A stretch of DNA of 24,779 nt from Minisyncoccota bacterium (GCA_021129615.1 JAJOKY010000023.1:1-24779); one strand, 5' to 3'; shown: positions 14,284-20,938, counted from the stretch's first letter. The notes: a model not told the origin generated them from the letters alone. Program-made: numbers and translations.

Positions 14284-14303
14284 TTGTCCACAACTTATTC
14301 ACA
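14284..14303 (+). promoter_or_regulatory. Two DnaA-box-like 9-mers between divergent promoters
   Basis: TTGTCCACA (14284-14292) and TTATTCACA (14295-14303), compared with consensus TTWTNCACA. Confidence 0.65.
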
Positions 14304-14313
14304 GAACTAAGAC

Positions 14314-14341
14314 TTGACAAACTTTTTGATTTGTCTATAAT
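14314..14341 (+). promoter_or_regulatory. Sigma70-type rightward promoter
   Basis: TTGACA-16 nt-TATAAT; no sizeable plus-strand ORF downstream. Confidence 0.7.
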
Positions 14342-14346
14342 AGAAA

Positions 14347-14493
14347 TCAGAGCTGACCTTTAGTTAGAGGTCAACAAGAATTTGTTGGTAAGGCTAAATG
14401 TCAGCTCTACCAACCCTATTATGACAACTTTAATTTTCTTTCAACAATTATTTTCACTGTTTTAAAACCAGGTTTTTTAGTTCCTGGTTTTTT
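14347..14493 (+). ncRNA. Candidate ~145 nt small RNA
   Basis: Follows a consensus promoter; AGAGCTGAC(14349)/GTCAGCTCT(14400) closes a rod-like hairpin; ends at a terminator-like hairpin. Confidence 0.5.
14464..14493 (+). terminator. Intrinsic terminator, possibly bidirectional
   Basis: AAAACCAGG-10 nt-CCTGGTTTTTT. Confidence 0.6.
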
Positions 14494-14561
14494 AATAAAA
14501 AAACCACCCTTAACGAGTGGTAAAAAACCTTTAACCATACCAAAGTTTTTATTTTAAATAT

Positions 14562-14590
14562 ATTATAGAACATTTAAGAAAACTTGTCAA
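14562..14590 (-). promoter_or_regulatory. Consensus leftward promoter
   Basis: TTGACA(14590-14585)-17 nt-TATAAT(14567-14562). Confidence 0.7.
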
Positions 14591-14593
14591 GGC

Positions 14594-14621
14594 TTGACAA
14601 AATAAATTATAAATATATTAT
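14594..14621 (+). promoter_or_regulatory. Rightward promoter back-to-back with the previous one
   Basis: TTGACA-16 nt-TATTAT; the two -35 elements form the inverted repeat TTGTCAAG-G-CTTGACAA. Confidence 0.5.
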
Positions 14622-14894
14622 AAATATTAACAAAGTAAAATAAGAGAAAAGAAGGGGGCTCTGTTTGGCGACTTTACATCCCCATAACCTCTAATAGTTA
14701 TTGGATGTGCTTTAGGGGGAGGGTTTGAATAAAAGTGGTAGTTATAGATATAACGCACCAAACCTATATCTCGGTTTATTAAAACCAAACTACTTATCCA
14801 ATCACCTATAAATGATAATATAATGGCGACCGACGGAAATAGACATTAAATTATTCTTTTCTCTTTTTTACCACATAAGGATTGTTATGAAAAC

Positions 14895-14919
14895 CTTTTA
14901 GGGAAGACCTCCCTAAAAG
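14895..14919. repeat. Perfect 10 bp inverted repeat
   Basis: CTTTTAGGGA-AGACC-TCCCTAAAAG. Confidence 0.8.
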
Positions 14920-15330
14920 TCGCCTTTGGCTCCCTCTGGAAATAGACAAAAAGAGACCCTAATTTAGGAGATAACATAATTAAGAAAGTTTGTCAAGTGT
15001 TATAGATTAATAAAGAGAAAAATAATAAAAAAAAATAGGAAAAAAAATAGAAAAGGGTAGAAATCTTAATTTTGGGGTTGGGGGGTGCATATAGAGTTTC
15101 ACAATTTCTAAAAAAAAACTACCCCTAAGTCAAATTGACAAAATGAAGAAGTTATGTTGAAATATTAAGTGTTTATATTAAAGGTTAATAAAAATATAAT
15201 TTTTAAAAAAGGAAATAAGGTTTAAGGTTTTGTTTGGTCCGTCCTAAAAATAAAATAATTTTTATAATCCATAAGATATAGTTTATTATATCTTTTTTTT
15301 TATTTAATAGGGGCAAAAAAGAATAAAAAG

Positions 15331-15350
15331 TTATTCACAGGCTGTCCACA
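15331..15350 (+). promoter_or_regulatory. Two DnaA-box-like 9-mers
   Basis: TTATTCACA (15331-15339) and CTGTCCACA (15342-15350), ending 10 nt before a -35. Confidence 0.6.
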
Positions 15351-15360
15351 GGTAGGGGGC

Positions 15361-15389
15361 TTGACAGGGTTTTTTGATGGGTGTATAAT
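15361..15389 (+). promoter_or_regulatory. Strong early promoter
   Basis: Perfect TTGACA-17 nt-TATAAT. Confidence 0.85.
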
Positions 15390-18393: not shown

Positions 18394-19009
18394 TATGTTA
18401 TACAATACCCATAATTTCAAAATTAAGAGCTTTGCTGGACAGGATACGGCAAGACCAGAGCTAAATAGTGTCTTTATTACGGCTAATGAGACAATAGCAA
18501 CCGATGGCTTTATTCTTATCAAGGTTGATAGCGTAAAAGAATTTGATATTAAAGATTATCCCTTAATTCCAGATAAGCCGAAAGCCCTTGCTAATTTTCA
18601 GCCGTTTATGTTTTCAAAAGAGAAAATAGAGCAGGTATTAAAGATTTTTCCTCCTAAAGTTTCCTTGCCGATTTTAGAAAATGTAGCTATTTTCAAGCGG
18701 ACTAAAAATATAGCAGAAATTGGCTCTACTGATTTAGGGGGCTATCAAGGCGTTATGAACCGAATTGTAGGAGGTAGGTTTCCAGATTATAAACAGGTTA
18801 TCAATGGTATTAAAAACGAGAGATGTATTGATGTAGAGATGAACCCTCAATTTCTTAAAAAAATAGCTGATTTTTTTTGCGGGTTTAGTGATAAAAAGTC
18901 AATTAAACTCTCAGTTCCAGTAAAGCCCAATAAACCTTTAATGTTTTCTGGTGAAAGGAATAAACAACGGGCTGAAGCGTATTTAATGCCAATTAAAACT
19001 ACTGAATAA
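18359..19009 (+). CDS. Short DnaN-like (beta sliding clamp) protein, 204-216 aa
   Basis: RPELNSV...IATDGFIL and GRFPDYKQVI match DnaN motifs (RxxLxGV...ATDGxRL; GxFPDYxRVI); C-terminal YLMPI. Start TTG 18359 or ATG 18395. Confidence 0.75.
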   Translation: MIINLNKKFKTNMLYNTHNFKIKSFAGQDTARPELNSVFITANETIATDGFILIKVDSVKEFDIKDYPLIPDKPKALANFQPFMFSKEKIEQVLKIFPPKVSLPILENVAIFKRTKNIAEIGSTDLGGYQGVMNRIVGGRFPDYKQVINGIKNERCIDVEMNPQFLKKIADFFCGFSDKKSIKLSVPVKPNKPLMFSGERNKQRAEAYLMPIKTTE

Positions 19010-19011
19010 TA

Positions 19012-19434
19012 ATCAGTGGTTGAAGTTAGTTCTTTTAGAGAATTAACTCCAGCTATCTGATTTAGGAACTCCTATTAACCAATGAAATGCTGACGGCTTA
19101 ATTCTGAAAGCAATTTCCCTCCGCTTTGCGATTAGGGATAAGTGTAGAGTTGGCGAGGTCAATTAAAACTGCCTATCAAAAACTCTTTCCTGTTTAACTT
19201 TAAAGCTATCTGATTTTTCAAAGGTTTTTAGTCCAGTTGCCTTAATTAGGTGTCGGTGGCGTTAGGAAAAGACTAACTTCCTTCTGGAAAAGAAGTAAAA
19301 GACCAGAGTTTGACAATTCAATTAGTTCCGACAAATCACTGGTGGAGCATAGATGACACTCCTTAAAGTCAAGTCAGTAAACGCCAGCAAACCTTAAGCA
19401 AGAAGCAATGGTTGGCAGTTTTCCAGCTTTTGCT
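19012..19434 (+). ncRNA. Candidate ~420 nt structured non-coding region
   Basis: ORF-free, visibly richer in GC than its flanks, multiple helices and a duplicated 13-mer AGCTATCTGATTT (19051, 19204). Confidence 0.45.
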
Positions 19435-19444
19435 TATTAAAATT

Positions 19445-20122
19445 ATGAATCAGCATATTATTCTTAAAAAATATATTACAGGACTTGTTAAAGGGCTTTC
19501 AGATAATTTGCTTGTAGTAGGACGAGCTGGAACGGGTAAAACTGAACTTATGCTAAGAACCTTGAAAGAAATGAACCTAAATGAAAAAGAACATTATCTT
19601 TATATTCCTAATTATATCACTCCCAGAGCTTTGGTAGATAAATTGGAAGAAGTTAATAAACTAAAAAGTCCCAGAGTATTTGTGATAGATGATGGTGAAG
19701 ATACTCTAAGGAACATTCAGAGCGTAGGGGTGTTAAAAGGGGCAATGTGGAGGGCTGGAGGACGAAAACGAGTAAGCTGGCTTACATCAAGAGGCAAGAA
19801 AGAATTTGATTTTATGGGCAAGATTATCTTTTTATTAAATAAATTTGATAAAAAGAATGCTTTATTGAATTCTTTGAAAGATAGGTCACTTTACTTTGAG
19901 ATAAGTTTATCCCCACAAGATATAAAAACCTTAATTGTAGAAAGAGCAAAAGAGCCGTATCACACCACTTCTTATGAGCAGAGAATAAAGGTTGCTAATT
20001 TTTTAGTTCAACAGAGTAATCCTAATATATCTTTAAGGGCTTTCCCTCACGCTTTAAATTTGATGCTTCTTAGTCCCCATCACTGGAAAGTTTTAACACA
20101 AGAAATAATAAAAAATAAATAA
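19445..20122 (+). CDS. AAA+ ATPase (probable start ATG 19445)
   Basis: Walker A GRAGTGKT, Walker B VFVIDD, sensor-1-like FLLN, arginine-finger-like SLKDRS. Confidence 0.85.
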   Translation: MNQHIILKKYITGLVKGLSDNLLVVGRAGTGKTELMLRTLKEMNLNEKEHYLYIPNYITPRALVDKLEEVNKLKSPRVFVIDDGEDTLRNIQSVGVLKGAMWRAGGRKRVSWLTSRGKKEFDFMGKIIFLLNKFDKKNALLNSLKDRSLYFEISLSPQDIKTLIVERAKEPYHTTSYEQRIKVANFLVQQSNPNISLRAFPHALNLMLLSPHHWKVLTQEIIKNK

Positions 20123-20129
20123 AAGGTCG
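20122..20129 (+). promoter_or_regulatory. AAAGGTCG motif
   Basis: 36 nt upstream of ATG 20166. Confidence 0.6.
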
Positions 20130-20165
20130 GCACAATAATAATAAACCAATTAAAACAAAAACATT

Positions 20166-20417
20166 ATGACAAAAGAAATTAAAATAACTAAAGAAAAAAT
20201 TTTAGAGCTTGTCCCTAAACATTTTGAGGAAGTTCTAAAAAGTGATTACTCTAATCCTATTAAAAATGCTGTTGAGGAAGCAATAAAAGAAAAAGAGGGA
20301 GTTATTAAAAAATTGGTAAATGAGGTGATTAGTGAGGTTTTAACTACAAAAGAATTCAAAGCAGAGATTACAAAAGAAGTTATTGCGAATGTTTTACGAA
20401 AAGGATTAGGGCAATAG
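20166..20417 (+). CDS. Hypothetical protein (83 aa)
   Basis: Clean ORF with A-rich leader. Confidence 0.75.
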   Translation: MTKEIKITKEKILELVPKHFEEVLKSDYSNPIKNAVEEAIKEKEGVIKKLVNEVISEVLTTKEFKAEITKEVIANVLRKGLGQ

Positions 20418-20456
20418 TTTGGGATAATAGTAAGGGTCTCTAAAAAACAATTAAAT

Positions 20457-20464
20457 AAAGGTCG
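20457..20464 (+). promoter_or_regulatory. AAAGGTCG motif
   Basis: 30 nt upstream of ATG 20495. Confidence 0.6.
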
Positions 20465-20494
20465 ACATTATAAACCAATTAAACAAAAAACATT

Positions 20495-20698
20495 ATGAAC
20501 AAATTACAAATTCTTTCAAATCAAATTCAAGATGATGTTAAAAATGGAGAAGCAACAGAAAGGATAAAAGAAAAGATTAGAAAATGGGGAGTAGAAGCAT
20601 CAAAAATGATGGATGAAATTGAAAAAAGAGAAAGAAAGGAATATGCAAAAGACGAACATATAAGAGCTGAGATACTTAATAATCAAAAAGAAGAATAA
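20495..20698 (+). CDS. Hypothetical protein (67 aa)
   Basis: Clean ORF; leader nearly identical to that of 20166. Confidence 0.75.
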   Translation: MNKLQILSNQIQDDVKNGEATERIKEKIRKWGVEASKMMDEIEKRERKEYAKDEHIRAEILNNQKEE

Positions 20699-20702
20699 AC
20701 TT

Positions 20703-20903
20703 ATGAAAGAGACAATACAACCACTTAAAACTTGGTGCTTGTATCTTAAAAGCCATTGTGAAGCCCCTGATTTTGAAGTAGAGGTGCAAGCAACAGATAA
20801 ACAAGATGCTTTTAGGCAAATTACTGAAAAATGGTATCAGCAATTAGGAGATATTGACATTTCTATTATTTGGGAAAATCTTGGTTGCCTTGGGTGTGAA
20901 TAA
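20703..20903 (+). CDS. Hypothetical protein (66 aa)
   Basis: Starts 4 nt after the previous stop. Confidence 0.7.
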   Translation: MKETIQPLKTWCLYLKSHCEAPDFEVEVQATDKQDAFRQITEKWYQQLGDIDISIIWENLGCLGCE

Positions 20904-20938
20904 CTTGCTATTGACAGGTGTTTTAATAAGAGTATAAT
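20895..20938 (+). promoter_or_regulatory. Reverse DnaA-like box plus consensus promoter
   Basis: TGTGAATAA (20895-20903, = TTATTCACA reversed), 7 nt, then TTGACA(20911)-16 nt-TATAAT(20933-20938). Confidence 0.8.

Follow-up and report, generated by a model that had tools for sequence, protein, structure and literature searches.

Fixed placement of DnaA-box-type sites upstream of the strong rightward promoters of a Patescibacteria phage and its probable link to host DnaA

We analyzed a 24,779-nucleotide stretch of DNA (JAJOKY010000023.1, positions 1 to 24779; here, the window), which is the whole of contig C1 of a metagenome bin (307 kb, 43 contigs, 73% complete) and is a phage of a Patescibacteria (Parcubacteria-like) host. 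Each of its four perfect-consensus rightward promoters (P1 to P4) is preceded by a 9-mer resembling the DnaA box (consensus TTWTNCACA) 7 to 10 nt upstream of the −35 hexamer. This arrangement had been proposed in a sequence-only reading of the same DNA; it was recovered at 4/4 promoters, and all box and promoter coordinates of that reading proved correct. As had been suggested, the 9-mers are sites of the DnaA-box type; our analysis supports selection for fixed positions in helical phase with the promoters. They probably work as promoter-proximal DnaA boxes that modulate early and middle transcription of the phage.

A promoter scan of the window found exactly five promoters matching the consensus at 12/12 positions, four rightward (−35 at 14314, 15361, 17820, and 20911) and one leftward (14590). 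P1 (TTGACA-N16-TATAAT; 14314 to 14341) is preceded by two direct boxes spaced 11 nt apart (14284-14292 and 14295-14303, plus strand): a distal TTGTCCACA centered at about −60 and a proximal TTATTCACA centered at about −49, the latter 10 nt from the −35. P2 (TTGACA-N17-TATAAT; 15361 to 15389) likewise has two direct boxes 11 nt apart, a distal TTATTCACA (15331 to 15339, plus strand; gap of 21 nt; center about −61) and a proximal CTGTCCACA (15342 to 15350, plus strand; gap of 10 nt; center about −50). P3 (TTGACA-N17-TATAAT; 17820 to 17848) has a single, perfect TTATCCACA (17802 to 17810, plus strand; gap of 9 nt; center about −49) within the 3′ end of the open reading frame (ORF) at 17482-17823. 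P4 (TTGACA-N16-TATAAT; 20911 to 20938) has a single inverted box, TTATTCACA on the minus strand (20895 to 20903; gap of 7 nt; center about −46), in the last codons of ORF 20703-20903. Box centers were computed with the transcription start set 7 nt after the −10. The matches at 14295, 15331, 17802, and 20895 fit TTWTNCACA strictly, while TTGTCCACA and CTGTCCACA depart from it at position 3 or at positions 1 and 3; TTGTCCACA is the box of the Mycobacterium tuberculosis type. The original wording, that every perfect promoter has a box, thus holds for the rightward four and fails for the minus-strand promoter (14562 to 14590), the sole 12/12 promoter without one and an internal contrast to the others. 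A box therefore accompanies 4/5 perfect promoters of the phage, and 5/6 perfect promoters of the whole 307-kb bin are located on the phage contig.

Matches to TTWTNCACA are not unusually numerous in the window (6 versus 3.5 expected; 13 of 100 shuffles reach 6). Their placement, by comparison, is far from random: 4/4 matches to TTATYCACA and 6/6 to YTRTYCACA in the 24.8-kb contig sit upstream of the four rightward −35s, at gaps of 7 to 10 nt for proximal and 21 nt for distal boxes. The probability that four independent clusters all lie no more than 10 or 30 nt ahead of a perfect promoter is ~2 × 10−11 or ~2 × 10−9, respectively, and the box-promoter composite occurs 4 times versus a mean of 0.005 in 400 Markov shuffles. 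The earlier argument that the constant spacing is not a coincidence is thereby upheld (placement P of ~1 × 10−9 to 1 × 10−11). An origin by chance, or by functionless duplication of one promoter cassette, might be suggested by the unremarkable total of consensus matches and by the spacer T-tract and similar −10 flanks common to P1 to P4. However, box number, order, and orientation differ among the promoters, the placement P is ~1 × 10−9 or lower, and the layout persists both in phages without detectable DNA similarity and at host genes (see below), so that we regard this explanation as exceedingly improbable. Because only the spacer T-tract is common to the P1 to P4 regions outside the hexamers and boxes, the four promoters are not simple copies of one cassette. 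The T-tract (TTTTTTGAT-like) lies at 14320-14335, 15367-15383, 17826-17842, and 20917-20932; perfect promoters in host-order genomes often have it too, for example as TTGACAAGGTTTTTTGAAACAATATAAT.

The sequence-only reading had asked whether the candidate host shows the same box-promoter coupling, and in genomes of the host order (a sample of 150 Patescibacteria genomes) it does. The composite TTATNCACA-N9/10-TTGACA occurred 56 times versus 0 for the reversed control, and TTATCCACA-N0-30-TTGACA occurred 128 times versus 3. Forward gaps clustered at 0 (5 matches), 1 (16), and 2 nt (9); at 7 (6), 8 (14), 9 (27), 10 (22), and 11 nt (6); and at 19 to 20 nt (7), with the rest scattered, which by manual tally corresponds to box centers at about −42, −50, and −61. 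The inverted box TGTGGATAA preceded TTGACA 104 times versus 4 in the control, with peaks at gaps of 6 (21) and 7 nt (15) and a second peak at 15 to 16 nt (13). The sites are thus found at discrete, helically phased distances (forward, 1, 9 to 10, and 19 to 20 nt; reverse, 6 to 7 and 15 to 16 nt), and the phage's forward gaps of 9 to 10 nt and inverted gap of 7 nt coincide with the orientation-specific host peaks.

A different picture is seen at the promoter of the leftward TerS/TerL/portal operon (TTGACA-N17-TATAGA; 14246 to 14274, minus strand). It diverges from P1, its −35 (14274-14269) lies 9 nt from the distal P1 box, and relative to it the two P1 boxes are reversed at gaps of 9 and 20 nt, which fall off the host peaks. 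The proposal had covered early as well as late transcription; on-peak boxes are confined to the rightward early and middle units, and the late part is weak, since the structural-operon promoter shares the 14284 box in reverse, 9 nt away and off-peak, and a second leftward promoter (~2966) has no box.

In the host-order genomes, the layout is found at cellular genes in 35 to 67 of the 150, upstream of genes for Fur, NusA, an aminotransferase, TetR, a XerD-like recombinase, HTH_17, NYN, and a Gp49 toxin-antitoxin gene. A host genome has ~11 perfect promoters (435 in 40 genomes) and ~9 perfect boxes (360 versus 120 in the control), and perfect promoters with a forward box within 30 nt number 15 in 150 genomes. 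Because only ~1% of perfect host promoters have a box, the box is a feature of a regulon and not a general promoter element. A recurrent host gene in L058, L062, L066, and L072 encodes a protein with an N-terminal "NYISLQEAT..YSQEYLSLRARQGKLKA" helix-turn-helix (HTH) motif and no Pfam family; it is preceded by CCGATAG-TTATCCACAG-N8/9-TTGACA and possibly belongs to the core of the box regulon.

The layout also recurs in related phages (35 non-redundant loci from TerL searches, with TerL 56 to 76% identical). Forward TTWTNCACA sites before TTGACA had gaps of 8 to 10 nt in 11/17 cases, 19 to 21 nt in 5/17, and 12 nt in 1/17, and the reversed-pattern control gave 1 match. The promoter orthologous to P3, upstream of the clamp-like gene, retains its box despite diverged flanks in L024 (AAAAGTTATCCACAGCT, gap of 9 nt), L028 (gap of 10 nt), and L047 (ATATTCACA, gap of 19 nt). 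Two or three tandem boxes with an 11-nt period lie between the divergent TerS-side and first early promoters in L020, L025, L027, L040, L041, L051, L053, and L054, the L025 cluster consisting of three perfect copies. In a viral sequence collection, the full composite was found with a gap of 9 to 10 nt in 58 stretches versus 4 with a gap of 4 to 5 nt. One uncultured viral contig (IMGVR_UViG_3300025073_000039; L195, L198; 89 kb) contains five copies of TTATCCACA-N9/10-TTGACA-N16-18-TATAAT, and IMGVR_UViG_3300025682_000014 contains three. A perfect TTATCCACA also recurs within the TerL coding sequence of related phages (L025:1897, L027:1227, L029:2726, and L042:2611), probably as a codon coincidence at a conserved peptide.

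Judged from sequence, host DnaA is most likely the functional reader of the boxes. A dnaA gene is present in 19/21 relatives searched, and the host-family protein matches Bacillus subtilis DnaA at 1 × 10−127. Its domain IV retains the RPRQ, SLPxIG, and GGRDHTTV motifs, with Tyr at the position of Escherichia coli H439, as in M. tuberculosis DnaA. Upstream of dnaA itself, five family members (L012 and L014-L017) have two or three tandem boxes 11 nt apart, ~25 to 30 nt upstream of a conserved TTTACT-type −35. Given this canonical domain IV and the same boxes at dnaA in the host family, DnaA should bind the phage 9-mers. Promoter boxes vary at position 5 (C/T/A), at position 3 (A/T/G), and rarely at positions 1 and 2, with T4 and CACA fixed; this fits reading by DnaA because it is the known degeneracy TTWTNCACA. 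In the dnaA-dnaN spacer of L012 and L014-L017, we also observed TGTGGATAA and TTATCCACA, with TGTGGATAA immediately following the stop codon of dnaA. A co-variation test, for a genome with a differing DnaA box, yielded no discriminating case. In the host-order genome G020 (L160, G020:C4; 25% guanine plus cytosine [GC]), which entirely lacks a perfect TTATCCACA, the ordinary variants ATATCCACA and TTTTCCACA lie close upstream of dnaA at a distance of 12 nt from each other, and DnaA has a canonical domain IV.

Another host factor, either a transcription factor or RNA polymerase itself through an alpha-subunit C-terminal domain or sigma-associated contact that makes the 9-mer a lineage-specific upstream (UP) element, could instead be the reader, the likeness to a DnaA box then being coincidental or competitive. 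The very strict −35 spacing in both orientations would be expected of an element read together with polymerase, and the box centers fall within the −40 to −60 zone in which UP elements sit. Nevertheless, the presence of a box on only ~1% of perfect host promoters speaks against a general element, the 9-mer and the variation it tolerates match the DnaA box exactly, and the same 9-mers occur in 11-nt tandem upstream of dnaA and in the dnaA-dnaN spacer. With a canonical domain IV, moreover, DnaA should bind whatever else does. We therefore consider a different host reader unlikely.

The phage encodes HTH proteins that might themselves be the main readers, regulating their own synthesis or displacing DnaA. 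The first gene after P4 (20947 to 21168, plus strand) encodes a 73-residue basic three-helix HTH protein (P0002), and ORF 17482-17823 encodes a 113-residue HTH protein. The 73-residue protein faintly resembles DnaA domain IV in Pfam, hhalign, and Foldseek comparisons. Bac_DnaA_C (PF08299) matched it weakly, below the cut-off (six-frame translation of 21004-21108, expectation value [E] of 0.009; protein, E of 0.017), and its Pfam matches were split among sigma region 4, HTH_23, and DnaA_C. When its family was compared to host DnaA domain IV with hhalign, the HTH aligned (E of 7.5 × 10−4; probability, 25%). The structural model was a confident three-helix fold (predicted local distance difference test score of 82) that recovered the DNA-binding domain of M. 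tuberculosis DnaA as the third Foldseek match (E of 0.5), with DeoR and sigma region 4 about equal and all E values above 0.2. A word-index search with the protein found only itself, and an exhaustive search uncovered a small family of 60- to 80-residue HTH proteins with homologues in two related phages (L024:3407-3565 and L020:2223-2345, both on the minus strand). Members are basic three-helix proteins with an Arg/Lys/Pro-rich N-terminal tail, occur in these phages and in metagenomes, and have no Pfam family.

None of these similarity scores is significant, however, the matches to the HTH domains of sigma region 4 and DeoR are equally good, and the DHTT recognition residues are replaced. The 73-residue protein was accordingly rejected as a domain IV homologue or general reader of the boxes on profile, Pfam, and fold grounds and because its family is absent from 149/150 other host-order genomes searched. 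With the family in only 1/150 of these genomes and the layout at cellular genes in 35 to 67, this protein cannot read the host promoters and a host reader must exist. The 113-residue protein gave no alignment to DnaA domain IV and was likewise rejected. A phage protein as main reader is thus very unlikely, although the 73-residue protein could compete at phage promoters.

The boxes could also serve replication, by recruiting DnaA to a phage origin in 14237-15445 or by soaking up DnaA. The box pairs of P1 and P2 flank the largest noncoding region of the contig (1.2 kb, ORF poor), the tandem cluster at the TerS-proximal site is the most conserved feature of the phage family, and the cumulative GC skew turns at 14 to 15 kb. 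In addition, with only ~9 perfect boxes in a host genome, replicated phage DNA could outnumber them. But gene direction switches where the GC skew turns, and the fixed gaps in the phage, its relatives, and the host would be needless for an origin or for titration. Two isolated boxes (17802 and 20895) lie within genes at distances of 2.5 and 5.5 kb, each in fixed register with a −35; one origin thus cannot account for every site, which agrees with the argument against a single origin function put forward in the sequence-only reading. As the sole purpose of the boxes, replication therefore seems rather improbable to us, since it leaves the promoter-locked boxes inside genes unexplained; an origin or titration role may be added at the conserved TerS-proximal cluster.

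The 1.2-kb ORF-poor region at 14237-15445 is packed with further signals. The ~145 nt without an ORF after P1 ends at a hairpin and T-run near 14466-14497; the boxless perfect promoter at 14590 (minus strand) is convergent and points at a terminator at 14521-14503; and an 11/12 promoter lies at 14594 (plus strand). These signals probably specify small RNAs; the candidates in this region had no Rfam match, and Rfam and tRNA scans of the window detected no RNA genes. The leftward unit and the P4 unit look leaderless, the TATAGA −10 of the former (14251-14246) stopping 9 nt before the ATG at 14236 and the −10 of P4 ending 8 nt before the ATG at 20947.

Gene content is that of a phage. The leftward genes encode a SU10-type capsid protein, three large proteins, an SPP1-type portal, and the large terminase. 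Rightward, P2 drives the first of a set of small early genes from 15446, which include a clamp-like protein, an AAA/clamp-loader-like ATPase, a RecE-like exonuclease, and RusA; downstream of P3 are a hairpin-rich leader and the genes for the clamp-like protein and the AAA ATPase. The early proteins mostly had no family in Pfam or PHROGs, and no DnaA-like initiator was found among them. At the DNA level, a megablast search of 13000-21500 against 50,697 phage records gave no match to deposited phages. The remaining contigs of the bin are cellular (EF-G, EF-Tu, DnaK, RpoD, DnaG, a penicillin-binding protein, and Mur ligase). Since the EF-G of the bin is nearest to metagenome-assembled genomes labelled Parcubacteria, Patescibacteria, or Minisyncoccales, the host group is taken as the candidate phyla radiation (CPR)/Patescibacteria; relatives have genomes of 0.3 to 1.5 Mb.

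Regulation by DnaA at promoters has precedents. At E. coli nrdAB, DnaA has been reported to stabilize RNA polymerase when DnaA-ATP is low and to act as a repressor when it is high (PMC8203912). The phage resembles nrdAB, dnaA, mioC, and uvrB of E. coli, the B. subtilis DnaA regulon, and Caulobacter targets in having high-affinity boxes just upstream of a sigma-70 promoter. Here, the phage and host boxes occupy one or two fixed, orientation-specific distances from the −35, and the layout is repeated at many promoters of the lineage and at nearly all strong promoters of the phage. To our knowledge, no such strict box geometry has been described for model DnaA regulons. The layout resembles class I/II promoters dependent on CRP, where activator sites also occupy discrete, helically phased positions upstream of the −35; the CRP site is palindromic, whereas the box is an asymmetric monomer site whose preferred gaps (9 to 10 versus 6 to 7 nt) depend on orientation.

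Among phages, lambda has a promoter that relies on host DnaA: pR activity is reported to depend on it, probably via the RNA polymerase beta subunit (PMC8203912, citing Szalewska-Palasz 1998). P1 to P4 would be comparable in being phage promoters served by host DnaA. The lambda DnaA sites lie downstream of pR, a single promoter tied to activation of ori-lambda, whereas the present boxes lie upstream, at about −46 to −61, in four separate units. In geometry, the tandem boxes that separate P1 from the leftward structural promoter are similar to the arrangement of phi29 p4, which is bound upstream between the divergent early A2c/A2b and late A3 promoters and contacts RNA polymerase; it represses the strong consensus-like early promoter by holding polymerase and blocking escape and activates the weaker late one. 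Protein p4 is phage encoded and has an unrelated site, while the protein presumed here is the host initiator. DnaA boxes are also found in plasmid and phage origins such as P1 oriR, RK2 oriV, and pSC101. These and oriC have the same 9-mer, including tandem copies 11 nt apart, but the phage boxes, unlike origin clusters, are spread over 6.6 kb, one set per promoter, with 2/4 sets in coding sequence.

On the reading that we favor, the four strongest rightward units, namely a small ORF-free RNA (P1), the first early genes (P2), a replication module with the clamp-like protein and ATPase (P3), and the HTH protein with recombination genes (P4), would each have, ahead of a sigma-70-type −35, one or two DnaA boxes on a constant face of the helix, in a layout copied from a promoter class of the host lineage. 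Host DnaA would bind the boxes, sit beside RNA polymerase, and modulate initiation, so that early and middle transcription of the phage would track how much DnaA is present or its nucleotide state, and with it the replication and growth state of the host. The orientation-specific gaps, which repeat every 10 nt, argue for a bound protein that needs to face RNA polymerase and against simple occlusion; this pointer to stereospecific contact leads us to lean slightly toward activation or recruitment at P1 to P4. Repression by holding polymerase on a consensus promoter, by analogy to phi29 p4, would be nearly as likely, and dnaA promoters with upstream boxes are classically repressed.

Several observations weigh against regulation by host DnaA. 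As perfect-consensus promoters, P1 to P4 should need no activator. DnaA is named as the reader from sequence identity alone, and dnaA was not found in the 73%-complete bin. In the other 283 kb of the phage's own bin, no box adjoins TTGACA, which is why the host evidence is taken from relatives, and the phage is assigned to its host only by binning and a common promoter style. The host-order genomes are related, so that counts from them are not independent, and the gap histograms are manual tallies of match listings. Finally, the box is not kept at the P4-orthologous promoters of L024 and L020.

A bolder extension, which we regard as doubtful, is that Patescibacteria DnaA is a stereospecifically placed, class I/II-type promoter-proximal factor with a regulon of its own that comprises genes and small RNAs, a module which phages have adopted as the master switch for the early program and as a titration timer. 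DnaA would then license early transcription only in replication-competent hosts, and the multiplying phage boxes would titrate DnaA, turning off host initiation and extinguishing the early promoters, thereby timing the passage from early to late expression.

Both a role of DnaA in transcriptional regulation and its action on a phage promoter are already known; a full-text literature search returned no description, for CPR bacteria or the phages that infect them, of a DnaA-box promoter layout. CPR/Patescibacteria account for much of bacterial diversity, have very few recognizable transcription factors, and are almost uncultured. If the boxes work as proposed, they would provide reduced genomes with a simple link from replication state to transcription, and the phage would read the same replication signal at nearly all of its strong promoters. 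The signature of a box, 9 to 10 nt, and TTGACA would also help to assign uncultured phage contigs to this host group.

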